A stretch of DNA of 48,934 nucleotides from Acidimicrobiales bacterium (GTDB taxonomy: Bacteria; Actinomycetota; Acidimicrobiia; Acidimicrobiales; Aldehydirespiratoraceae), in NCBI GenBank assembly GCA_040263275.1, contig JBDQKM010000002.1:1-48934 (forward strand). The letters run 5' to 3'. The notes beneath the pieces were generated by a model, which made no database searches, was not told the origin of the DNA, and worked only from the letters and a program-made list of their open reading frames with translations. The position numbers and the translations under genes are program-made. Shown one piece after another: positions 5,729 through 42,980 of the stretch (positions are counted from its first letter, which is position 1; the number at the start of each line of letters is the position of its first letter).

Positions 5729-6400
5729 TCACGCGCGCGGGTGCGGCGACCAGCCCTGGTCTCCGACGAGCGGCACGAACCGCACCGGCCCCAGGTCTTC
5801 CTCCACCAGGTCGTCGCCGCGGCGACGCACCCGGATGAGCCGCTGGACTCGGGTCTCCGGACCGACCGGGATTACGAGGGTGCCGCCCTCGGCGAGCTGG
5901 GCCACGAGCGCCTCGGGAACCGAGGGCCCACCGGCAGTGACGATGATGGCATCGAAGGGCGCGCACTCGGGAAGCCCCAACGTGCCGTCGCCATGGACGA
6001 CGTGGACGTTGTCGTAGCCCAGGTCGACAAGACGCGACCGGGCTCGATCCGCGAGGGCGGCGAGCCGCTCGATCGTCCACACCTCGCCGGCGACGGTGCT
6101 CAGCACCGCGGCCCCGTACCCCGAACCGGTGCCGATCTCGAGGACCCGACTCTCGGGTCGCAGTTCGACGGCCGCAGCCATGGCTGCGACGACGAAGGGC
6201 TGCGAGATGGTCTGGCCCTCGCCGATGGGCAATGCCGAGTCGTCATAGGCGAACTCGGCCAGGTCGTTTCCGACGAAGCAGTCCCGAGGCACGGTCCGCA
6301 TGGCGGCAATGACGGCGGTGTCGTCCACGCCCCGCTCGACGATCTGACGATCGACCAGCCGGTTCCGGGCTGTCTCCGTGTCTCTTCCGGGTCGGCCCAT
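5729..6400 (-). CDS. pcm: Protein-L-isoaspartate O-methyltransferase
   Basis: VPRDCFV..AYDDSALPIGEGQTISQPFVVAAM..VLEIGTGSGYGAAVLS are the canonical PCMT motifs. Confidence 0.85.
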   Translation of the reverse strand: MGRPGRDTETARNRLVDRQIVERGVDDTAVIAAMRTVPRDCFVGNDLAEFAYDDSALPIGEGQTISQPFVVAAMAAAVELRPESRVLEIGTGSGYGAAVLSTVAGEVWTIERLAALADRARSRLVDLGYDNVHVVHGDGTLGLPECAPFDAIIVTAGGPSVPEALVAQLAEGGTLVIPVGPETRVQRLIRVRRRGDDLVEEDLGPVRFVPLVGDQGWSPHPRA

Positions 6401-24660: not shown

Positions 24661-26447
<1,787 letters not shown>

Positions 26448-26451
<4 letters not shown>

Positions 26452-27914
26452 GCGTGCCCGAACACTTCGACGTCCTGATCGTCGGCGCCGGTATCTCGGG
26501 CGTCGGCGGCGCCTACCACCTCCAGGAGCAGCGCCCGGGCTCGTCGTTCGTCGTGCTCGAGAGCAAGGAGACCTTCGGCGGTACCTGGGAGACCCACAAG
26601 TATCCGGGCATCAGGTCCGACAGCGACCTCTACACCTTCGGCTACCGGTTCAAGCCCTGGACGGGCACGCCGATCGCCACCGCCGATGAGATCATCCGCT
26701 ACATGGGCGAGGTCATCGACGAAAACGATCTCGACCGCCACATCCGCTACGGCCACCTGATCACCTCGGCCCGGTGGAACAGCGACGAGCGGCGGTGGAC
26801 CATCACGGCGACCGGCCCCGACGGCGACTCGGTCGTGTTCACCGCCGGGTTCCTGTGGATGTGTCAGGGCTACTACCGCCACTCCCACGGCTACACCCCC
26901 GAGTGGCCGGGGATGCAACGCTTCGCCGGGCAGATCGTGCACCCGCAGACCTGGCCCGACGATCTCGACTACGCCGGGAAGCGGGTCGTCTGCATCGGCT
27001 CGGGCGCCACCGCAGCCACGCTCGTGCCGGCGATGGCCGACGAGGTCGAGCACATCACGATGCTCCAGCGGTCGCCGACCTTCTTCATCACCGGGCGCAA
27101 CGCCAACGAACTGGCCGACACCCTCCGCGAGCTCGACATCCCGGAGGAGTGGACCCACGAGATCGTGCGGCGCAAGATCCTGAAGGACCAGGGCGAGTTG
27201 ACCAGCCTCGCGCTCGATCACCCCGACATGGTGCGCGGCGAGCTGTTGAAGGCGATCAGCGACATCCTCGGCGACGACTACGACGTCGACACCCACTTCA
27301 ACCCGAGCTACCGGCCCTGGCAGCAACGCATCGCGTTCGTGCCCGACGCCGACCTCTTCCAGGGCATCAAGTCGGGCCAGGCATCGGTGGTCACCGACGA
27401 GATCGAGTCGTTCACCGAGACCGGGATCGCCCTCACCTCCGGTGAGCACCTCGAGGCCGACATCATCATCACGGCCACCGGCTTCGACCTCAACGTCCTG
27501 GGCGACATCGACTTCGCCATCGACGGCGAGCCGCTCGACTTCTCCTCGACCGTCACCTACCTGGGGGCGATGTTCACCGGCGTCCCCAACCTGGCCTGGG
27601 TATTCGGCTACTTCCGCGCCAGCTGGACCCTGCGAGCGGACCTGTTGGCCGACTTCGTGTGCCGCCTGCTCGACGAGATGGACGAGCGCGGCGCCACCCG
27701 AGTCGTGCCCGAGCTCGGAGCCGACGAGGCCGACATGGAGCTGCGCCCGTGGGTCGAAGCCGACAACTTCAACCCCGGCTACCTCACCCGCAACATGCAC
27801 CTCATGCCCAAACAAGGCGACCACCAACCGTGGATCCACACCCAGGACTACTGGGTCGACAAGGACCTGCTGCCGGCCGTCGACCTCGGTGACGGTGCCC
27901 TCCGCTTCGACTGA
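26448..27914 (+). CDS. FAD-containing monooxygenase (EthA-like Baeyer-Villiger type)
   Basis: ATG 26448 overlaps the upstream stop (ATGA). IVGAGISGV, FGGTWETHKYPGIRSDSD, FAGQIVHPQTWP and CIGSGATAAT. Confidence 0.85.
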
Positions 27915-27952
27915 CGCTTCCACCACCCCCGACGGAGCGGTACCGTGACGGC

Positions 27953-28765
27953 ATGACCGATCTCCAGAGCCGTGCCGATCTCGGTGGTTTCGAACCCGAG
28001 TACAACGACGTGAGCTTCCCGTTTCCCGAGCCCCGGGAGACCATCGAGGAGGAGCGGCTCTATCGCAAGCAGCGCCTCGCCGGCGGCTTGCGCATCCTCG
28101 GCCGGCTCCGTCTCGCCGAAGGTGTCGCCGGCCATGTGACGGTCCGCGACCCGGAACACCTCGACCACTTCTGGGTCAACCCGTTCGGGAAGAACTTCAA
28201 GTACATGACGGTGAGCGACCTCATCTGCGTCAACCACAAGGGCGAAGTGGTCATCGGCGACCGGCCCGTGAACACCGCCGCCTTCGCCATTCACTCCGGC
28301 CTCCACGCGGCTCGCGAAGACGTGATCGCCGCGGCCCACTGTCACTCGATGTACGGCCGCACCTTCTCGGCGATGGGCAAGCCGCTCCGCATGCTCACCC
28401 AGGACCACACGATGTTCTACAACGACGTGGCGATGCATGCCGACGGCGGGGGAGCAGTGGTGCTCGACCCGGCCGACGGGGCCCGGATGGCCGAGTCGCT
28501 GGGCGACAAGAAGGCCCTCATCCATCAGAACCACGGGCTCATCACGGTCGGCGGCTCCGTCGACGCTGCGATCTGGTGGTTCGTGGCGCTCGAGCGCTGC
28601 TGCCAGACGCAGCTGGTGGCCGAGGCCGCCGGCGAGCCGATCGACATTGCCGACGAGCTCGCCCAGGCGGGCTACGAGCAGCAGGGGAGCGACCTCGGCG
28701 GCTGGTTCCAGTTCCAGCCCTGGTGGGAAGAGCTGCTCCGGGAAGAACCCGACTTCCTCGACTGA
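27953..28765 (+). CDS. Class II aldolase/adducin family protein
   Basis: GHVTVRDPE..FWVNP..NTAAFAIHSGLHAAREDVIAAAHCHSMYG..LIHQNHGLITVG. Confidence 0.8.
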   Translation: MTDLQSRADLGGFEPEYNDVSFPFPEPRETIEEERLYRKQRLAGGLRILGRLRLAEGVAGHVTVRDPEHLDHFWVNPFGKNFKYMTVSDLICVNHKGEVVIGDRPVNTAAFAIHSGLHAAREDVIAAAHCHSMYGRTFSAMGKPLRMLTQDHTMFYNDVAMHADGGGAVVLDPADGARMAESLGDKKALIHQNHGLITVGGSVDAAIWWFVALERCCQTQLVAEAAGEPIDIADELAQAGYEQQGSDLGGWFQFQPWWEELLREEPDFLD

Positions 28766-28766
28766 C

Positions 28767-29432
28767 GTGACCCTCGACGTCTCGGCGGTCGACGGCGTCG
28801 GGTGGCTCGTCTTCGACCGGCCCGAGGCCGGCAACGCCATCAACGCGCAGATGTTCCGCGACCTGGAGCGCGCGTGGCGTGATCTCGAGGCCGACCCCGA
28901 AGTACGGGTGATCGTCAACACCGGCAACGGCCGGGCCTTCCAGACCGGCCTCGACGTGATCCAGCTCGCCCGCGACAAGGCCGCACTGCGTGAGAGCTCG
29001 CGACAGACCCGTGACTTCGAGCTGCGGATGACCGGTTGGCACTGTGGGGTCACGAAGCCTGTGATCGCTGCCGTGAACGGCACCTGTGCGGGCGGCGGCC
29101 TGCACTTCGTGGCCGATGCCGACATCGTCATCGCGGCCGAGGACGCCACGTTCCTCGACCCGCACGTGAGCGTGGGGCAGGTCTCGGCCTTCGAGACGAT
29201 CGGGTTGCTCAAGAAGGCGCCGATGGAGTCCGTGACACGGATGGCGCTCATGGGCCGGCACGAGCGCATCGATGCGCGACGGGCCCGCGAGTTGGGGATC
29301 GTGAGCGAGGTGGTCCCCGCCGACGAACTGCGGCCTCGCGCCCAGGCGCTCGGCGAATCGATCAGCCACCACGAGGCGGACGCGCTCGCGGCGATGAAGA
29401 CGGCCCTCTGGAAAGTGTTGGAGCGCCCCTAG
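28767..29432 (+). CDS. Enoyl-CoA hydratase/isomerase family protein
   Basis: In-frame GTG at 28767, directly after the aldolase stop. VGWLVFDRPEAGNAIN..VIVNTGNGRAFQTGLDV..AAVNGTCAGGGLHFV. Confidence 0.8.
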   Translation: MTLDVSAVDGVGWLVFDRPEAGNAINAQMFRDLERAWRDLEADPEVRVIVNTGNGRAFQTGLDVIQLARDKAALRESSRQTRDFELRMTGWHCGVTKPVIAAVNGTCAGGGLHFVADADIVIAAEDATFLDPHVSVGQVSAFETIGLLKKAPMESVTRMALMGRHERIDARRARELGIVSEVVPADELRPRAQALGESISHHEADALAAMKTALWKVLERP

Positions 29433-29436
29433 ACCC

Positions 29437-30633
29437 TCAGGTCGGGATGTCCTTCCAAGCCACGTCCTTGTCGACCCGCGGCTCACCGGGAAGCCCGAGC
29501 ACGCGCTCGCCCAGGATGTTGCGCATGATGTCGGAGGTGCCGCCCTCGATCGTGTTGGCCTGACTGCGCAGGAACGACTTGGAGAGGGACTGGGCCCCGC
29601 GGCTCAGGCCTTCCTCGCGGGTGAGCGAGTAGCCGGGCTCGTGCATCATCCCGTCGGCGCCGAGCAGGTCCATGCACGCGATCCAGATCCGCTGGTTCAA
29701 CTCGGCGCTCGCGAGCTTGCCGACCGAGCCCTCGGGACCGGGATTGCCCACTGTTGCGTTGCTGCGGGCCCGCAGCGTCGTCAGGCGACCGACCTCGGCC
29801 TCGATCCAGAGTTGACTCACACGATCGCGCATGATCGCCCGCTCGGCGACCGGGAGTTCCGGGCCCCGCTTGTTCCACAGATCGACCAACGTGCCGATGT
29901 TGCCCGACCCGCGCGGCGCCGTGCTGCCCCCGAGCGCCACGCGCTCGTTCATCAGGGTGGTGGTCGCCACTCGCCAGCCGTCGCCCACGTCGCCGAGCAG
30001 ATCGGAGTGGGGGATGCGCACATCGGTGAAGAAGACCTCGTTGAACTCGGCCTCGCCGGTGATCTGGTAGAGCGGCCGGATCTCGACCCCGGGGGCCTGC
30101 ATGTCGAGGATGAAGTAGGAGAGGCCCTTGTGCTTGGGCTGGTCGGGGTCGGTGCGCACGAGGAGCATGCCGTAGCGCGAGATGTGGGCCACGCTCGTCC
30201 ACACCTTCTGCCCGTTGACGACCCACTCGTCGCCGTCACGGACGGCCCGGCTCGAGAGGCCCGCCACATCGGAGCCGTGGCTCGGCTCCGAGAACATCTG
30301 ACACCACCAGTCCTCGCCGGTGAAGATCCGCTTCAGGTACTTGTCGTGGTGTTCGTCCGACCCGTAGGTCAGCACCGTCGGCAGGCCCATGCCGATCCCG
30401 ATCGTGTTGGTGGCCAGCGGGTGGAAGAACCGTCCGGCGGCCCGAATCGTCTCCTCGACCGCGCCCTGCAGTTTCGGCGACACGCCGAGGCCGCCCTTGC
30501 CCTCGGGGAACTGCACCATCGCCAGGCCGGCATCCCACAGGGCGCTGCGGAACGCCACCTCGTCGGCATCGACCCCGACCTCGTCGATGACCGCCTGTGT
30601 GCGGACCCTGATGTCGTCTTCTGTGAGCGTCAT
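29437..30633 (-). CDS. Acyl-CoA dehydrogenase
   Basis: WWCQMFSEPSHGSDVAGLSSRA..DGDEWVVNGQKVWTS and the C-terminal TIEGGTSDIMRNILGERVLGLP. Confidence 0.9.
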   Translation of the reverse strand: MTLTEDDIRVRTQAVIDEVGVDADEVAFRSALWDAGLAMVQFPEGKGGLGVSPKLQGAVEETIRAAGRFFHPLATNTIGIGMGLPTVLTYGSDEHHDKYLKRIFTGEDWWCQMFSEPSHGSDVAGLSSRAVRDGDEWVVNGQKVWTSVAHISRYGMLLVRTDPDQPKHKGLSYFILDMQAPGVEIRPLYQITGEAEFNEVFFTDVRIPHSDLLGDVGDGWRVATTTLMNERVALGGSTAPRGSGNIGTLVDLWNKRGPELPVAERAIMRDRVSQLWIEAEVGRLTTLRARSNATVGNPGPEGSVGKLASAELNQRIWIACMDLLGADGMMHEPGYSLTREEGLSRGAQSLSKSFLRSQANTIEGGTSDIMRNILGERVLGLPGEPRVDKDVAWKDIPT

Positions 30634-30651
30634 GGCCGCGGACGCTACCGG

Positions 30652-30897
30652 CTACTCCCTGGGGTCGTCGATCTCGACGCGGGCGAGGGCCGGCAGGTCG
30701 GTCTTCATCATGTCGAGCGCGACGGTCTCGAGGAAGGCGCGAGGCATGACGCACTCCGCGCACTCGGCGGTGTCGAGGACCAGCCGCAGGGCGACGCCAT
30801 CACCGCTGGTCGCGCTGACCATGATGTCGCCGCCGTCGGCCGCGACGAGTTCGCGCACCGCCGCGAGCGCGGATTCGGCTTCAGTCATGGTGATCAT
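30652..30897 (-). CDS. Small NifU/Nfu C-terminal-domain-like protein
   Basis: Real part of ORF 30652..31005, from ATG 30897, which overlaps the upstream stop (ATGA). AAVRELVAADGGDIMVSATSGDGVALRLVLDTAECAECVMPRAFLE resembles the Nfu fold with a CxxC pair. Confidence 0.55.
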   Translation of the reverse strand: MITMTEAESALAAVRELVAADGGDIMVSATSGDGVALRLVLDTAECAECVMPRAFLETVALDMMKTDLPALARVEIDDPRE

Positions 30898-31724
30898 CGG
30901 GCGTTCGCTCCTTCGAGGTCGTTCGTGAGTCCTTCGTCGTTCGCCGGCCGACTCCTCGACAGGAACGCACCGGCGTCGGCCAGGATGAACTGGCCGGTGA
31001 TGCAACGAGCCAGGTCGCTGGTGAGGAAGGTGGCGAGTCGGGCGAGCTCGTCGTGCTCGACGCCACGGCGCAGCGGCGTCGACTGCGCGATCTGCTCCAC
31101 CCGTTCGGGGGTGAAGGCCGCGGCGACGGTCTCCGTCATCGTCGTTCCCGGGGCCATGGCGTTGACACGGATGCCGCTCGGGCCGAGTTCGACGGCCATC
31201 GACGTGACGAGATGGTTCACCGCGGCCTTCGCCGCGGCGTAGATCGAGTTGTAGGGCGACGGCCGCGTCGTCTCACCCGACGTGACGAAGAGGATGACGC
31301 CGCCGCCGGCAGCCGCCATGACCTCGGCCTCGGCCCGGCCGCAGAGGGCCGCCAGGGTGAGGTTCTGATCGACGATGTCGCGCCAGTCCTCACCCCGGTA
31401 CCGCACGAAGGGTTTCGGGGACCGACCCGGCGGGATCATCCCGATGTTGTTGACGGCGATGTCGAGGCTGCCGAGACGTTGGACCGTGGTCGCCACCATG
31501 GCATCGACCGCGTCGTCGTCGCGGCAGTCGGCCACCACCGGCACCGCCCGACCGCCTTCGGCTTCGATCTCGGCCACGACCGCCGCGGCGTTCTCGGCCC
31601 GGAGATCGTTGACCGCCACCGCGGCGCCCGCCCGAGCGAGCCATCGTGCGACTTCCCGACCGATACCGGCGCCGGCCCCGGTCACCAGGGCCACGCGACC
31701 GTCATGGTCGATCGTGATGCTCAT
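30894..31724 (-). CDS. SDR family oxidoreductase
   Basis: ATG 31724 with GGGAGGA upstream. VALVTGAGAGIGREVA, NNIG, and YAAAKAAV (YxxxK). Confidence 0.85.
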   Translation of the reverse strand: MSITIDHDGRVALVTGAGAGIGREVARWLARAGAAVAVNDLRAENAAAVVAEIEAEGGRAVPVVADCRDDDAVDAMVATTVQRLGSLDIAVNNIGMIPPGRSPKPFVRYRGEDWRDIVDQNLTLAALCGRAEAEVMAAAGGGVILFVTSGETTRPSPYNSIYAAAKAAVNHLVTSMAVELGPSGIRVNAMAPGTTMTETVAAAFTPERVEQIAQSTPLRRGVEHDELARLATFLTSDLARCITGQFILADAGAFLSRSRPANDEGLTNDLEGANAR

Positions 31725-31725
31725 C

Positions 31726-32247
31726 TCACTGTCCTCCCGTGAGGAGACGCAGGGCCTCCTCGACCGCGCCGTCGGCCCACGCCTCGACGACCGAGGTGTC
31801 GGTGCCACCCAGGGGATGTTCGACCTGCACGATGCGCGCGTCGGGCTGCCCCAGTGAGGCCGCGACCTGGTCGGTCAGGGTCCTGAACTTGGTGGTGGTC
31901 ACCACCACCGTGGGGATCCCGGCGGCTTCGAGTTGTACGGAGTCGTGGACACTCCACGACGTGCAGCTGCCTCAATCGGCCGAGCCGGTCAGGACCAGCT
32001 CGACCTCCTCGCGTAGTCGTGACATCACGTCGTCGGGCGCCGCCAGGGCTGCGTTCTTGGTCTCGACCCGCGTGACGGTCGCCCCGGTCCGCTCGGCCAG
32101 TCGCTCCGCCATCCGGCCGAGCAGCACGCCGGCGTTCGGCTTGGTGTTGTCGAGGATGCCGATTCGTCGGCCGGCCAGGACGGAAGGGCTCGGGGCCAGA
32201 TGGACCGGCTCGGGGCCGATCTCACCCGCCGGGGTGTAGATCCTCAT
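31726..32247 (-). CDS. Candidate selenoprotein with a U-G-S-C motif (in-frame TGA at 31972..31974 read as Sec); 173 aa
   Basis: ORFs 31972..32247 and 31726..31908 are in the same frame, separated by one TGA and 21 sense codons. Read-through gives ..VELVLTGSAD-U-GSCTSWSVHDSVQLEAAGIPTVVVTTT... A SECIS-like hairpin lies 11 nt downstream. AGGAG SD precedes ATG 32247, and the gene is tightly coupled to its neighbours. Confidence 0.7.
31942..31960 (-). promoter_or_regulatory. SECIS-like hairpin downstream of the UGSC TGA
   Basis: The mRNA sense is GUCGUGG-AGUGU-CCACGAC, a perfect 7-bp stem starting 11 nt after the UGA. The apical-loop G-U falls at nt 23-24 counted from the U of UGA. Confidence 0.6.
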
Positions 32248-32271
32248 GCGTTTGCTCCTGTCATTCCGGTC

Positions 32272-33318
32272 TCAGTTCGCCTCGACGGCGACGGTCACGC
32301 TCTTCGTCATGCCCCAACTCGGGATCACGCTGCTGTGCTTGCCGGGGCCACCGACCACCAACACCTTGATGTGGTCGGGGTGGGCCGTCATGGGCATCAG
32401 TTCGTCGTCGGCCAGCGTCTGCTGCCACGGCTCCCACGCCCGCAGGTCGAAGGCGCGACGGAGCTCCCCGGCGGGCAACCGGGCGCGTTGATGCAGGTAG
32501 GACGCAACGTGACGACGCGTCCACCCGGCGGAGGCACACGCCGCAGCATGTTCTGGGCAGAGCGTCACGAAGTACTCGCCCTGGCTGATCGGGGCGTTGT
32601 TCTGTCCGGTCGAGCTCATGGCCGACGCGATCTTGTCGAGGATCGCCTCGGGCGTCGAGGATTCCATGTCGTGCGCATTGTGTGGCGCCTCGCCACAGTG
32701 GACGCTGACCGCCGACGGCGCTTCGACGCCGGCGTCGGCCGCATAGCTGCCCCACGGCGACTCGGCGAGGTTCTCGGCGACGCAATAGGTGTACTTCGCC
32801 GGTCCGCCCTGGGTGGCCACGTCGCCCGGACCGGGCACGGCGCCGGCAATGTGCATCAGGATGAGGCGGAGGGCCCGCCCTGTTGCCGCGTTGGCCCGGT
32901 TGCCGGGCCCGAACGCGCCGATCCCGCCGTTGAAGCCACCCTCCTCGGCCACCCGACCGTGAACGACCAGGAGCGGGGCGACGGGATGGGTCGTGGCGTT
33001 GACCCCACGGAGATTCACCTCGGGCCGGGCCAGTGCCCGCACCGCGGCCACCAGCACCGGCTGATGCGCTGGGGTGCACCCGGCGAGGACGGCGTTGACG
33101 GCGATCATCCGGCGTGTGGCGAGTCCGGATCGCGGCGGCAACACGGCGATCACCTCGTCGGGGTCGTGTTCCCCGGAGCCGAGCATCTCGGCCACTCGCT
33201 CCTCGGTCGGGGGGATCATCGGCAGACCGTCGCCCCACCCGAACGACGCGTAGAGCTCGAGGAGACGGACCGGGTCGTCGTGATCGAGTTCGAGGAAGGT
33301 CGCGCTGTCTGTTGCCAT
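32272..33318 (-). CDS. Conserved hypothetical protein (348 aa), first gene of the UGSC operon
   Basis: Real part of ORF 32272..34044, from ATG 33318 (MATDSATFLELDHDD..). It has normal coding bias, with blocks such as FGWGDGLPMIPPT, AVNAVLAGC, GVNATTHPVAPL and GPGNRANAATGRALRL. I could not assign a family. Confidence 0.6.
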   Translation of the reverse strand: MATDSATFLELDHDDPVRLLELYASFGWGDGLPMIPPTEERVAEMLGSGEHDPDEVIAVLPPRSGLATRRMIAVNAVLAGCTPAHQPVLVAAVRALARPEVNLRGVNATTHPVAPLLVVHGRVAEEGGFNGGIGAFGPGNRANAATGRALRLILMHIAGAVPGPGDVATQGGPAKYTYCVAENLAESPWGSYAADAGVEAPSAVSVHCGEAPHNAHDMESSTPEAILDKIASAMSSTGQNNAPISQGEYFVTLCPEHAAACASAGWTRRHVASYLHQRARLPAGELRRAFDLRAWEPWQQTLADDELMPMTAHPDHIKVLVVGGPGKHSSVIPSWGMTKSVTVAVEAN

Positions 33319-33332
33319 CAGACACCAGTCTG
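33319..33332. promoter_or_regulatory. Palindrome in the 51-nt divergent region between the UGSC operon and a TetR gene (operator candidate)
   Basis: CAGAC-ACCA-GTCTG directly abuts the ATG at 33318. Confidence 0.3.
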
Positions 33333-33369
33333 ATACCGTTCGACAGGAAACGCAAGCGAAGGAGCGTCG

Positions 33370-33936
33370 ATGGCCGCTCGTGCCGGGATCCGACGAGATG
33401 ACGTGATCGCCGAGGCGATACTGATGATCGACGAGGGCACCCGCCCCGCCGACCTGAGTCTCGGGGCCCTCGCCCGGCGACTGGGGATCCGGCCCCAGTC
33501 GCTCTACGCCCACGTCAACGGGACCGAAGGCCTGGGTCGTGCCGTGGCCGTTGCCGGCCTCGGCGCCCTCGCCGCAGCCGTCACCGCCGCCGGCATCGGC
33601 GTCAGCGGCACCGATGCGGTCGCGGCGATCGTGCGGGCCCACCTCGACTTCGCGTCGCGTCGGCCGGGCCTCTACGAGGCTGCGATCCGACCCCCGGGGG
33701 ACGACCCCGAACTCCTCGCAGCCGTCGAGGCCGTGTCGGCGCCGCTCGAGCAGGTCCTCACGGGGATGGGCATGGGTGGCGACGACCGGGTCCACTGGAC
33801 CCGGCTGTTTCTGTCGTCGGTCTACGGCTACGCCGCGTTGGGCAACGCCGGCCGATTCGCCCTGCCGGTGTCGACCGACGACACCGAAGCCGCGCTGATC
33901 GAAATGCTGACGCGCCGGCTGGTGGTCAGCGCTTGA
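33370..33936 (+). CDS. TetR family transcriptional regulator
   Basis: GAAGGAG SD upstream. HTH region RDDVIAEAILMIDEGTRPADLSLGALARRLGIRPQSLYAHVNGTEGL. Confidence 0.8.
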   Translation: MAARAGIRRDDVIAEAILMIDEGTRPADLSLGALARRLGIRPQSLYAHVNGTEGLGRAVAVAGLGALAAAVTAAGIGVSGTDAVAAIVRAHLDFASRRPGLYEAAIRPPGDDPELLAAVEAVSAPLEQVLTGMGMGGDDRVHWTRLFLSSVYGYAALGNAGRFALPVSTDDTEAALIEMLTRRLVVSA

Positions 33937-34528
33937 GCAGACGCCAGGCCGCGGGCAGCAGTGAGCCCGCCAGCAGGGCCTTGAGAAGATCGCCGACCAC
34001 GAACGGCGCAACGCCGTAGGCGATCGCACTTGCCTCGTCGACACCGGCGGTCACCGGGATGCCGAGGTCGTAGGCCAGCCAACCGGCGCCGAGCGTGTAG
34101 ATGATCACGCTGCCGGCGAGGAACGCGGTGATCGAGGTGGAGAGCTGACGGTCCTGGCCGCGCTCGGCCAGCCAGCCGACCGCGTAGGCCGCCACGATGA
34201 ACCCGACGAGATACCCCGCCGTGGATCCGGTGGCGACCTCCCAGCCGCCCTCGCCGTCGGAGTAGAAGGGCAGGCCGATCGCACCCATGGCGACATAGAG
34301 CAGCTGCGACGAGGCACCGAGTTGCGACCCGAGCGTGCCGCCGGCGAGGAGCACTGCGAACGTCTGGCCCGTGATGGGGACGGGCGTGAAGCCGAGCGTG
34401 AAGGACACCTGCGCGGCGCCGGCAGTGAGGAGGGCGAACCCAACCACGGCCACGATGTCGCGGACGACCGATCGAGGGATCGTGTCGATGAGGGTGGTCC
34501 GGGCGGGAATGGCCCCGATTGCAGTCAC
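33926..34528 (-). CDS. bioY: Biotin transporter BioY
   Basis: PITGQTFAVLLAGGTLG..LLYVAMGAIGLPFYSDG..GGWEV..GSTAGYLVGFIVAAYAVGWL is the BioY signature. GGAGG SD precedes the GTG at 34528. Confidence 0.85.
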   Translation of the reverse strand: MTAIGAIPARTTLIDTIPRSVVRDIVAVVGFALLTAGAAQVSFTLGFTPVPITGQTFAVLLAGGTLGSQLGASSQLLYVAMGAIGLPFYSDGEGGWEVATGSTAGYLVGFIVAAYAVGWLAERGQDRQLSTSITAFLAGSVIIYTLGAGWLAYDLGIPVTAGVDEASAIAYGVAPFVVGDLLKALLAGSLLPAAWRLLKR

Positions 34529-34608
34529 TGGTCAGCCTCCGAATGGCGGGCGCGGGATCGAACGGCGCCACCCTAGCCAGGTCGGCCCGAGGTGACGAAG
34601 CCGACGGT

Positions 34609-36414
34609 TCAGTCGAGTTGCAGCCCGGCGAGCCCGCCGGCGCCCCGCCACTCGTCGAGAAGGGCGAAGAACTTCATGTTGCCCTTGCCGTAACTGCCGT
34701 TCTGCGCCGCTCGGGCCGTGGGCTGACCCTCGTTGTTGTAGTAGCCCGGCGTGCAGCTCTCCTGAAACGCCGCGGTGTCGCGGGCGCTCGCGATGATCTC
34801 GGCGACCCACGCGTCCTCGGCCTCCACCGTCGCCTCGACGCGTGTCGACCCCGATGCGTGCATCTCCGCGAGCACGTGGGCGATGTGGCTGCTGACCTCG
34901 TCGAGCATGTGGGGATAGTTCGCGGTGAACCCTCCCTGGGTCTGGCTGACGATGAAGCAGTTGGGAAACCCGTGGCTGAAGATCCCGTGGAGTGTGCGGA
35001 CCCCGTCCTCCCACTTGGCCGACAGCGTGACGCCGTCGACGCCGGTCAGGTCGCATCCCGACCGTCGGGTGTAGCTGGTCCCGACCTCGAAGCCGGTGGC
35101 GAAGATCAGGCAGTCGACCTCGTATTCGGTCCCCGCGACGACCACCCCGCGCTCGGTGATCTCGTCGACGCCCTTGCCGTCGGTGTCGACGAGATGCACG
35201 TTGGGACGGTTGAAGGTGTCGAGGTACTCGTCGTGGAAGCACGGCCGCTTGCAGAACTGGCGGTACCACGGCTTGAGCGCCTCGGCGGTGTCGACATCGC
35301 GTACGACCCGGTCGACCCGCTCGCGGATCTCGTTCATCTTGGCGAAGTCGGCGAGCTCCATGGTGCGGCCGAGGCTCGCGGCGGAGAAGTCGCTCTGGGT
35401 CTGCTTCGCGATCTCGATGAACTTCCCGATGATGCTCGTCCACCCGTCCATCACCAGGTCCCGGTCGGTGAAGCCGCCCGAGACGAGGGTGTTGAAGTTC
35501 TCCATCCGTTCGCGGTGCCAGCCGGGAGACAACGAGGCCACCCATTCCGGGTCGGTGGGGGCATTCTCCCGCACGTCGATCGACGACGGGGTCCGCTGGA
35601 ACACATGCAGCGACTCGGCGGCGGCGCCGACGTGTGGCACACACTGCACCGCAGTGGCGCCTGTGCCGATGATCCCGACCCGCTTGCCGGCGAGTCCGGT
35701 GAGGTTCCCGTCGGGGTCACCGCCCGTGTAGTCGTAGTCCCACCGGCTCGTGTGGAACGAGTGGCCGGCGTAGCGGTCGATTCCCTCGATGCCCGGGAGC
35801 TTCGGTCGGTGGAGCGGCCCGCTCGACATGATCACGAATCGGGCCCGGATGGCATCGCCGCGATTGGTGCGGACCGTCCAACGCCGGGCCGGCTCGTCCC
35901 ATTCGGCCGAGGTCACCTCGGTCTGGAACAGGGCGTTGTCGTAGAGGCCGTAGTGCTCGCCGATCGTGCGGCTGTGGGCGAGGATCTCCTTGGCCTTGGT
36001 GTACTTCTCCGCCGGCATGAAGCCGGTCTCCTCGAGCAGCGGCAGGTAGATGTAGGACTCGATGTCGCACATGGCGCCGGGGTAACGATTCCAGTACCAG
36101 GTACCGCCGAAGTCGCCGCCCTTCTCGATCACCCACACGTCGTCGATGCCGGCCTCGGCGAGTCGGGCTCCCGCCAGGAGGCCACCGAACCCGCCCCCAA
36201 CGACCACCACTTCGACCTCGTCGGCGAGCGGTGCCCGCTGGATCACCTCGTCGAGGTAGGGGTCCTCCACGTAGTAGGCGAAGTCTCCGGCGACCTCCAC
36301 GTACTGCTCGTTGCCGTCGTCGCGGAGCCGCTTGTCTCGCTCGATCCGGTATTTCTCGCGCAGGACGTCGGGATCGAAGCCGAGGTCGTCGGCCGGGAGG
36401 TCGGTCGTCGTCAT
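34609..36414 (-). CDS. Baeyer-Villiger monooxygenase (paralogue of 24661..26451)
   Basis: VGGGFGGL, GGDFGGTWYWNRYPGAMCD, the fingerprint YAGHSFHTSRWD, and IIGTGATAVQ. It is collinear with the 24661 product along its whole length. Confidence 0.9.
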   Translation of the reverse strand: MTTTDLPADDLGFDPDVLREKYRIERDKRLRDDGNEQYVEVAGDFAYYVEDPYLDEVIQRAPLADEVEVVVVGGGFGGLLAGARLAEAGIDDVWVIEKGGDFGGTWYWNRYPGAMCDIESYIYLPLLEETGFMPAEKYTKAKEILAHSRTIGEHYGLYDNALFQTEVTSAEWDEPARRWTVRTNRGDAIRARFVIMSSGPLHRPKLPGIEGIDRYAGHSFHTSRWDYDYTGGDPDGNLTGLAGKRVGIIGTGATAVQCVPHVGAAAESLHVFQRTPSSIDVRENAPTDPEWVASLSPGWHRERMENFNTLVSGGFTDRDLVMDGWTSIIGKFIEIAKQTQSDFSAASLGRTMELADFAKMNEIRERVDRVVRDVDTAEALKPWYRQFCKRPCFHDEYLDTFNRPNVHLVDTDGKGVDEITERGVVVAGTEYEVDCLIFATGFEVGTSYTRRSGCDLTGVDGVTLSAKWEDGVRTLHGIFSHGFPNCFIVSQTQGGFTANYPHMLDEVSSHIAHVLAEMHASGSTRVEATVEAEDAWVAEIIASARDTAAFQESCTPGYYNNEGQPTARAAQNGSYGKGNMKFFALLDEWRGAGGLAGLQLD

Positions 36415-36443
36415 GGCGGCGAGTCTCGCGCCGACGACGGCCC

Positions 36444-37640
36444 TCAGTCGAAGGGAAGGTCGAGGAGCTTGATCGCGTTGCCGCGGGCGATCTTGTAGAC
36501 CGCCTCGTCGTCGAGATGGCCGAACAGCTCGTGGGCGACCTCCTTCGAGCGAGGGAAGGTCCCGTCGCTGTGGGGGTAGTCCGTCTCGAACAGCACGTTG
36601 TCGACGCCGACCTCGTCGAGCAGCTTCATGCCAGCCGTGTCCTTGAAGAAGCAGCTGTAGATCTGGCGGCGGTAGTAGTACGACGGCGGCTCGGGGAGGC
36701 GTTCCTCACCCTGGGCCCAGCGGTGGGTCTTGTAGTTGTCGTCGGCCCGTTCGAGGTAATAGGGGATCCAGCCGATCTGGCTCTCGGCGTACATGAGCTT
36801 CAGGTCGGGGTGGCGAACGAGCACTCCGGAGAACAGGAAGTCGATCATCGAGGCCGCACTGTTGGCCGAGATCAAGGCCGCGGTCACGAGCGTCGGCGCG
36901 TCGTCCGACGGCTTGACGGTGCGGGTGCCCGACCCGATGTGCATGGTGATGACGGTGCCGGTCTCCTCGCAGGCCCTGAAGAACGGGTCCCAGTGGCCCG
37001 AGTGGATGGAGGGGAGACCGAGCCAGGCCGGAAGCTCCGAGAAGGCCACGGCCTTGACACCGCGGGCGGCGTTGCGGCGGATCTCCGCGGCCGCGAGCTC
37101 GGCATCCCAGAGCGGCACGAGGCAGAGGGGGAGGAGACGACCGCCGGAGTCACCGCACCATTCGTCGACCATCCAGTCGTTGTAGGCCTCCACACACAGC
37201 TTGGAGAGCTCCATGTCGTTGCGCTCGGCGAAGAGCTGACCACAGAACCGCGGGTAGTTCGGGAAGCACAGCGACGCCTCGACATGATTGGCGTCCATGT
37301 CGGCCAGGCGGGCCTTGGGGTCGTAGCAGCCGGGCCGGATGTCGTCGTAGGTGACACCCTGCATCGTCACCTCTTCGGGCGGCGTGCCGGCGCAGGCGAT
37401 CATCTCCTTGATCTGGTAGCGGTGGTCCTCGTAGTGCCACCAGGCCGCCATCTTGTCGCCGTTGCCCGGAGTCTCGACCCAGGCACCGTCGACCAACGCC
37501 ATGTCTCCCTGCGGAGCGATGACGATCCGGGGACCCACGTCCTTGTACTTCTCGGGCAGCCGGTCCTGCCACAGATGGGCGGGCTCGACGACATGGTCGT
37601 CGACGCTGATGATCTTCGGGAAGTCGGCCAGTTCCGTCAT
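36444..37640 (-). CDS. Amidohydrolase-2 family protein (ACMSD/LigW-like metal-dependent hydrolase or decarboxylase)
   Basis: ISVDDHVVEPAHLWQDRLP..., ITMHIGSG, and FETDYPHSDG (a metal-binding Asp/His pattern). Confidence 0.75.
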   Translation of the reverse strand: MTELADFPKIISVDDHVVEPAHLWQDRLPEKYKDVGPRIVIAPQGDMALVDGAWVETPGNGDKMAAWWHYEDHRYQIKEMIACAGTPPEEVTMQGVTYDDIRPGCYDPKARLADMDANHVEASLCFPNYPRFCGQLFAERNDMELSKLCVEAYNDWMVDEWCGDSGGRLLPLCLVPLWDAELAAAEIRRNAARGVKAVAFSELPAWLGLPSIHSGHWDPFFRACEETGTVITMHIGSGTRTVKPSDDAPTLVTAALISANSAASMIDFLFSGVLVRHPDLKLMYAESQIGWIPYYLERADDNYKTHRWAQGEERLPEPPSYYYRRQIYSCFFKDTAGMKLLDEVGVDNVLFETDYPHSDGTFPRSKEVAHELFGHLDDEAVYKIARGNAIKLLDLPFD

Positions 37641-42662: not shown

Positions 42663-42980
42663 ATGCTCACGCTCTACCACAACCAGAATTGAAGCAAGGC
42701 TCGCGGGGCGGTCGCCCTGCTCGACGAACGCGGGGTCGACTACACGATCCACGACTACATCGCCGATCCACTCGATGCCGCGACGCTGACCGAGCTCGTG
42801 GCCATGGTCGGCGGTGACCCGGCGGCGATGGTGAGGGCATCCCTCGACGACACCAGCGCCGCGGCGGTGGTGGCCCACCTGGTCGAGAACCCGGCCGACA
42901 TGCAACGACCCATCGCCGTGCTCGACGGCCGCGCCGTCTTCGGCCGCCCGTCCGAGCTGGTGCTCGACCTCCTCGACTGA
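42663..42980 (+). CDS. ArsC-family (Grx-type arsenate reductase fold) protein with an in-frame TGA at the catalytic Cys position; candidate selenoprotein, 105 aa
   Basis: ATG 42663, 12 nt after the HD-gene stop. MLTLYHNQN-U-SKARGAVALLDERGVDYTIHDYIADPL... aligns with the ArsC N-terminus IYHNPAC(12)GTSRN, and the TGA at 42690..42692 sits at Cys12. The C-terminus NPADMQRPIAVLDGRAVFGRPSELVLDLL matches ArsC ..INRPIV....RLCRPSEVVLDIL. A SECIS-like hairpin follows the TGA. Confidence 0.7.
42703..42720 (+). promoter_or_regulatory. SECIS-like hairpin downstream of the ArsC-family TGA
   Basis: GCGGGGC-GGUC-GCCCUGC forms a 7-bp stem (one G.U pair) starting 10 nt after the UGA. From memory, GGUC is the same apical tetraloop sequence as the E. 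coli fdhF SECIS. The loop G-U falls at nt 22-23 from the U of UGA. Confidence 0.55.

Follow-up and report, generated by a model that had tools for sequence, protein, structure and literature searches.

When is an in-frame TGA a stop, and when is it a codon? The question is raised by a segment on the minus strand, positions 31726..32247, of a stretch of 48,934 nucleotides from an uncultured Acidimicrobiia bacterium (contig JBDQKM010000002.1), referred to below as the window. Mechanical listing of open reading frames (ORFs) breaks the segment in two: a piece of 91 amino acids at 31972..32247, and a piece of 60 amino acids at 31726..31908, which opens at the GTG at 31908. Both pieces lie in a common frame, and the gap between them consists of a TGA and 21 sense codons. 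If the TGA is read as selenocysteine (Sec, or U), the two pieces become one protein of the UGSC family. We conclude, with high confidence, that the segment is an intact gene for a selenocysteine-containing UGSC protein; the role that we propose for this protein, as part of a reductase, is much more tentative.

One frame and one protein family

The frame that runs from 32247 down to 31726 contains only one internal TGA, read at 31974..31972. Translation through this codon gives ...LTGSAD-U-GSCTSWSVHDSVQLEAAGIPTVVVTTTKF..., the residues around Sec92 being ...LTGSAD-U-GSCTSWSVHD...; the Sec-containing peptide is GSAD-U-GSCTSWSVHDSVQLEAAGIPTVVVTTTK, and the motif D-U-G-S-C-T covers residues 91-96. 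The preliminary description of this locus had reported the shared frame with its gap of a TGA and 21 codons, an AGGAG Shine-Dalgarno motif, and a next gene whose ATG lies 1 nucleotide past the stop. All its coordinates are reproduced here: the motif is read directly in the sequence, and the next ATG, at 31724, is that of a short-chain dehydrogenase/reductase (SDR). Table 1 collects the positions of these and other features.

Two simple explanations of the TGA can be set aside. Sequencing error is ruled out, since four contigs, each from a different metagenome sample, carry the 91-residue fragment with an identical TGA at its end. An altered genetic code is also ruled out: TGA is the stop codon of 14 of the 20 genes here, the UGSC gene included, and is thus an ordinary stop in this DNA.

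What protein does the reunited frame encode? The 173-residue read-through translation, scored with U replaced by C, matches the NCBIfam model NF041046, "UGSC family (seleno)protein", with 142.3 bits for a cut-off of 125, and the Pfam family PF24696, 'UGSC family', with 165.1 bits for a cut-off of 25. The latter match is full-length, pairing residues 3-170 of the protein with positions 2-171 of the 172 of the profile, and the size of the protein is that of the single domain, about 175 amino acids, as in homologues of 173-184 amino acids. The family name that had been put forward is thus the right one. A search of 5.8 billion proteins yields 240 relatives; those listed are 173-198 amino acids long and carry PF24696, and several of those listed from metagenome-assembled genomes (MAGs) of Acidimicrobiia already bear the NCBI name 'UGSC family (seleno)protein'.

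The TGA falls on a very particular column of this family. In an alignment of 25 full-length homologues, the U of the query faces an invariant Cys within an invariant A-D-C-G-S-C-T, Cys homologues of 175-180 amino acids span the TGA position, and conservation is good in the C-terminal half. The check proposed in the preliminary description, that relatives should span the TGA in an alignment and have Cys or Sec at that column, turns out as expected: the column holds either Cys or TGA.

One might still suppose that there are two small genes, a protein of 91 amino acids ending at the TGA and one of 60 amino acids starting from the GTG at 31908, as in the output of mechanical ORF and gene callers. 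However, the 21 intervening codons specify the family's most conserved peptide (GSCTSWSVHD...LE..G.PTVV), invariant in Cys homologues; there is no conserved start or Shine-Dalgarno motif at 31908; and both pieces match one Pfam domain, end to end. We regard the chance that this reading is correct as negligible.

The protein itself is a member of a catalogued family, already known and with nothing essential different: it has the same full-length domain of about 175 amino acids and the same U/C-G-S-C motif as a family that occurs in Sec and Cys forms and is abundant in aquatic metagenomes. UGSC was described in the selenoproteome drawn from Global Ocean Sampling (GOS) metagenomes (Zhang & Gladyshev 2008, PMC2398784), with 255 Sec and 21 Cys sequences, a UxxC motif, a preference for non-marine samples, and a fusion with an uncharacterised domain, 'Unknown_1'. 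A 2016 survey found it in 26 genomes (PMC5029168), and reviews of 2022 and 2026 list it as functionally uncharacterised (PMC9312934, PMC13188914), the second citing NF041046.

Contrary to the preliminary description, which held that such a gene is unusual in a high-GC actinobacterial operon, its occurrence here is ordinary. Acidimicrobiia MAGs provide the genomes nearest to the locus, with identities of 95% and 83%, and nearly all of the best 80 genomic loci belong to MAGs of Acidimicrobiia or other Actinomycetota: the family is at home in this lineage. As a discovery, then, the gene is a small one, the re-identification of a catalogued selenoprotein family in a lineage where it is common.

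A translated codon and its hairpin

Is the UGA actually translated? To answer, we rely on a comparison set of 78 non-redundant, species-level loci. At the Sec column, the codon is TGA in 27 of them and TGC or TGT in the other 51. The TGA loci, whose proteins share roughly 54-95% identity, comprise 25 distinct 60-mers and are not assembly copies of one genome. In every one of the 27, the frame stays open past the TGA, for 79-84 more codons, and for 173 in the locus where a NifU-like domain is fused to the protein (L009). Pairwise divergence at codon positions 1, 2 and 3 is 0.28, 0.24 and 0.56 in the 3' half, and 0.33, 0.29 and 0.54 in the 5' half. Since the two halves diverge alike, both are translated and under the same purifying selection; the conservation that had been anticipated for the 3' half is therefore present.

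These numbers bear directly on the possibility that the gene is a pseudogene, in which a recent nonsense mutation has turned the TGC of a Cys-type UGSC gene into TGA, the downstream frame being left to decay. The change requires a single base, most of the relatives are of the Cys form, and ORF callers do split the gene. However, the TGA is kept in 27 species-level genomes with open frames and equally selected halves, the gene retains its tight coupling to the next gene of the operon, and the synonymous sites of the hairpin described below are frozen in TGA forms only. The codon-position divergence effectively refutes the pseudogene, whose probability we put close to nil; an open and selected 3' half in the TGA loci excludes the two small genes as well.

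The reading of the UGA as Sec makes a further prediction on the mRNA, namely a selenocysteine insertion sequence (SECIS) of the bacterial type. Eleven nucleotides past the UGA starts a hairpin with a perfect stem of 7 base pairs, spanning nucleotides 15-33 (nucleotide 1 being the U of UGA) and placing G23-U24 in its apical loop; its local folding energy is -12.5 kcal/mol. The preliminary description had compared this geometry to the SECIS of the Escherichia coli gene fdhF, and the comparison holds on the actual sequence of strain K-12: fdhF has its TGA at codon 140 and an apical loop, GGUC, over nucleotides 22-25, which places G23 and U24 just as in the UGSC hairpin, and its hairpin likewise starts 11 nucleotides past the UGA. 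The two elements differ in the stem: that of UGSC is a perfect helix of 7-8 base pairs, which lacks the extended lower helix of fdhF.

A hairpin alone is not significant, as there are 1023 TGA trinucleotides on both strands of the window. The chance of finding a perfect 7-bp hairpin 9-20 nucleotides past a given TGA in the window is about 0.018. It drops to about 0.005 if the loop must also contain GU, a figure that is suggestive only once the TGA is known to sit at the Cys column. It is the comparative data that carry the case.

Over codons +4 to +11 (T-S-W-S-V-H-D) of the TGA loci, third-position divergence drops to 0.042, against about 0.55 on both flanks. The Ser codon that provides G23-U24 is AGU in 27 of 27 Sec loci, an unexpected choice in DNA of 68% GC. 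In the Cys loci that encode the identical T-S-W-S peptide, the same codon is AGC in 18 of 18 and never AGU, the Val codon is often GUG, and the stems are weaker: the 7-bp stem is intact in 4 of these 18, versus 26 of the 27 Sec loci, with mean folding energies of -8.1 and -12.5 kcal/mol, respectively. Among the Sec loci, changes are few: the loop has a substitution in L007, a G-C pair has become G-U in L009, and L076 combines a G-C to G-U change with the loss of the outermost pair. The UGSC SECIS is thus an almost invariant element of 19 nucleotides, encoded by the codons of T-S-W-S-V-H-D, and this is an addition to what was known of the family.

In the Cys loci that are sister to the Sec clade (L020-L030, L038, L044, L055 and L080), the T-S-W-S-V-H-D peptide is kept, and often 6 or 7 of the 7 stem pairs, always with AGC. 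Judging from these sequences, they look like carriers of a decaying SECIS remnant, and the critical base would be the U of the loop.

On a neighbor-joining tree, 26 Sec loci form one clade and one locus, L070, is an outlier, which amounts to two state changes by parsimony. The outlier (JANLSK010000006.1, TGA at 6280) sits beside Streptomycetaceae-like Cys forms, yet its hairpin sequence is identical. Its placement could reflect an independent switch between Cys and Sec, horizontal transfer, or an artefact of the tree.

Probable decoding of selenocysteine

Does this organism decode Sec at all? A scan of the window for coding frames interrupted by TGA uncovers a second candidate selenoprotein gene, of the ArsC family, 10 kb away from the first. 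Its read-through translation aligns over its full length, across the TGA, to the arsC model TIGR00014 with E = 5e-19, a match that does not reach the equivalog cut-off. The codon lies within the active-site motif YHNxxC, at a position where a relative of 30% identity (L090) has Cys. The hairpin that follows has the loop of fdhF, GGUC. A metagenomic relative of 68% identity (L088) keeps the TGA, and in its stem a G-C pair is replaced by A-U through two synonymous, compensatory substitutions. Gene callers give only the last 58 amino acids of this gene; Sec-containing ArsC-like proteins are themselves a known family (PMC2398784).

With a second gene of Sec type in the same window, the organism very probably decodes Sec; two such genes on one 49-kb contig indicate that the Acidimicrobiia lineage to which it belongs uses selenocysteine. 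In another order of the class, Actinomarinales, selA, selB, selC and selD are reported in all complete genomes (bioRxiv 10.64898/2026.04.03.716425, a 2026 preprint).

Several observations weigh against a Sec-containing UGSC protein. With E. coli SelA, SelB and SelD as queries, tblastn finds no match in the 49-kb window or in the related loci (6-10 kb on either side, about 0.9 Mb in all), and ARAGORN, applied to the window and the 27 Sec loci, reports no tRNA-Sec and a single tRNA-Cys. No member of the family is reported with experimentally shown selenium (PMC13188914). The covariance-model check suggested in the preliminary description comes out negative: Rfam has no match at the gathering threshold in the whole window, and a search of 31850..32050 at E<=10 brings up none of its SECIS families. 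This argues little, since the SECIS models of Rfam cover few bacterial types. Fold z-scores in windows of 46-66 nucleotides are unremarkable (-0.46 and -0.87), and the bulged U17 of fdhF is missing from the stem. Finally, the Sec forms fall almost entirely into one clade, and the Fisher p of 6e-13 overstates their independence; the frozen synonymous sites in a deep Sec clade, and the presence of the same element in L070, are independent of that test.

The absence of Sec machinery from the sequence searched, the lack of an Rfam SECIS match, and a literature in which selenium in UGSC was never demonstrated would suit a read-through of the UGA that involves no selenium, either by a near-cognate tRNA that adds Cys or Trp, or through a local recoding signal other than SelB and SECIS. 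However, the spacing of the hairpin and its G23-U24 loop are those of the SelB-binding element of fdhF, the loop U is exactly what separates TGA from Cys forms, and a second gene with TGA at a Cys position, followed by a GGUC-loop hairpin, lies in the same window. In addition, TGA is an ordinary stop here, and there is a report of Sec machinery in this class. Such a read-through appears very unlikely to us.

Insertion of Sec at codon 92 would thus follow the standard bacterial mechanism: the hairpin, with its apical G23-U24, is predicted to bind SelB and would recruit it together with Sec-tRNA(Sec). The terminal TGA of the mRNA has no SECIS-type hairpin, and would end translation.

A partner gene and a possible role

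The gene directly 5' of UGSC encodes a protein of 348 amino acids that we call X348. It is found in that position, on the same strand, in 73 of the 75 loci with enough flanking sequence, including those of Streptomycetaceae and Myxococcota. X348 has no match in Pfam or NCBIfam and no relative by sequence in the Protein Data Bank (PDB). A fold search with its AlphaFold2 model (pLDDT 82.9) gives no significant PDB match, the best being the Toblerone-fold barbiturase family with E = 0.012 and TM 0.23. Many of its residues are invariant, among them GWGDGLP, NATTHP, QGGPAKY, HCGExPHNxHDME, CPEHAxxC and GGxGKHSxxxPSWG, and a profile search with it collects 5866 cluster representatives.

Natural fusions link the two proteins, and link them to others. 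Among the long X348 members, P0246, P0254, P0257 and P0283 are UGSC-X348 fusions, and in P0249 and P0248 such fusions are cut exactly at the Sec position, or restart after it. A single case, P0250, fuses X348 to a thioredoxin reductase (TIGR01292, 331 bits). Another candidate fusion, P0140 (549 amino acids), is rejected as an over-extended ORF call.

On the 3' side, the gene immediately next to UGSC codes for an SDR in 16 of 22 Sec loci and in 8 of 47 Cys loci. In the window, the start of a gene for a NifU-like protein overlaps the stop of the SDR gene, two genes 3' of UGSC. NifU-like genes lie 3' of UGSC in 15 loci, and the NifU-like domain is fused to the C-terminus of UGSC in P0116 and in the Sec locus L009; the protein is a candidate redox partner or iron-sulfur carrier of UGSC.

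Table 1. Positions in the window of the features discussed in the text.
Feature	Position	Strand	Details
UGSC family gene, probable selenoprotein	31726..32247	-	174 codons including terminal TGA, 173 residues; ATG 32247..32245
In-frame UGA, probably read as selenocysteine	31972..31974	-	codon and residue 92; motif D-U-G-S-C
Shine-Dalgarno motif AGGAG	32255..32259	-	7 nt 5' of the UGSC ATG
SECIS-type hairpin	31942..31960	-	stem GUCGUGG (31960..31954) / CCACGAC (31948..31942); loop AGUGU (31953..31949)
X348, no Pfam or NCBIfam family	32272..33318	-	348 amino acids; stop 24 nt before the UGSC start
Short-chain dehydrogenase/reductase	30894..31724	-	adh_short_C2, E = 1e-55
NifU-like protein	30652..30897	-	81 amino acids; C-x-x-C (AECAEC); PF01106, E = 1.7e-5, just under gathering score
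ArsC-family gene, second candidate selenoprotein	42663..42980	+	105 residues; TGA 42690..42692; MLTLYHNQN-U-SKARG
Hairpin of the ArsC-like gene	42703..42720	+	GCGGGGC-GGUC-GCCCUGC; 10 nt past the TGA

What could the UGSC protein do? A model of its structure, computed with AlphaFold2 on P0001, a Cys homologue of 68% identity (pLDDT 90.8), has five parallel strands in a beta-alpha repeat, forming a flavodoxin-like alpha/beta domain. Strand 3 leads directly into the U/C-G-S-C motif, which lies at the N-terminus of helix 3. Thioredoxin-fold oxidoreductases with CxxC or UxxC motifs (of the thioredoxin, peroxiredoxin or DsbA type) likewise carry a redox pair, with two residues between its members, at the N-terminus of a helix; the fold differs, and the thioredoxin-like fold proposed for UGSC in 2008 (PMC2398784) is not borne out by the model. 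The profile of the family finds nothing meaningful among PDB sequences, and the best PDB neighbours of the model are generic flavodoxin-like domains with TM around 0.5.

GrdB, GrdF and GrdH, the selenoprotein B subunits of glycine/sarcosine/betaine reductase, and PrdB, its counterpart in D-proline reductase, are each one subunit of a multi-protein reductase. Their NCBIfam models match UGSC weakly over the Sec region, with E of 0.008-0.14 and 11-15 bits for cut-offs of 300-800, and PrdB has a U-x-x-C motif (PMC2398784). The UGSC protein is, however, much smaller, X348 has no similarity to the GrdE and PrdA families, and the hosts differ, being amino-acid-fermenting clostridia on one side and, here, aerobic-type Actinomycetota on the other. 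We take the resemblance, seen at the level of sequence, as a lead and not as demonstrated homology.

It is tempting to conjecture that UGSC and X348 form a two-part enzyme, as their near-universal adjacency and natural fusions suggest. UGSC would be its redox subunit, with U-G-S-C as a selenol/thiol pair whose redox cycle passes through a selenenyl-sulfide, a role that suits the geometry of the model. The fusions suggest that reducing power would most likely come from NAD(P)H, through a flavoprotein of the thioredoxin-reductase type, through the NifU-like CxxC protein, or through both. In this clade, the UGSC-X348 pair is accompanied by an SDR within a catabolic gene cluster.

More generally, the pair may be an uncharacterised two-subunit reductase, dependent on a selenol or thiol and fed by a flavoprotein, a NifU-like protein or both, that is widespread in Acidimicrobiia, other Actinomycetota and Myxococcota and acts on a small-molecule catabolic substrate: an aerobic counterpart, in logic, to PrdA/PrdB or GrdE/GrdB, in which X348 would have a fold with no solved relative. 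We consider this proposal possible but doubtful, and the functional model of a two-part selenol/thiol reductase, taken by itself, deserves the same caution. The evidence for it is gene context and fusions only; no solved structure matches UGSC beyond the generic fold; and the likeness to GrdB and PrdB is sub-threshold, with no match to Pfam PF07355 at E<=1 and none in the PDB.

What is new here is the near-universal partner of 348 amino acids, and the fusions that tie the UGSC-X348 pair to thioredoxin-reductase and NifU-like CxxC domains, which suggest a thiol/selenol reductase in two parts. UGSC is among the most abundant selenoprotein families of aquatic environments, and a near-obligate partner gene and a set of fusions offer a testable handle on its function.

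The wider neighbourhood, roughly 26000..37000 on the minus strand, is a catabolic-looking cluster, as is that of L001, with two or three Baeyer-Villiger or flavin monooxygenases, a class II aldolase and an enoyl-CoA hydratase. An acyl-CoA dehydrogenase, an amidohydrolase_2 protein, a BioY transporter and a TetR regulator belong to the same cluster. Within it, only the series X348-UGSC-SDR, with or without the NifU-like gene, is conserved across genomes.

There is also a practical consequence: ORF and gene callers fragment both the UGSC gene and the ArsC-like gene, and the annotation of the contig should be corrected. Two other listed ORFs are of note. The one of 590 amino acids at 32272..34044, minus strand, is X348 over-extended across a divergent gene of the TetR family (33370..33936, plus strand), and the plus-strand ORF at 31739..32239, opposite UGSC, is an antisense shadow of a type common in DNA with this GC content.

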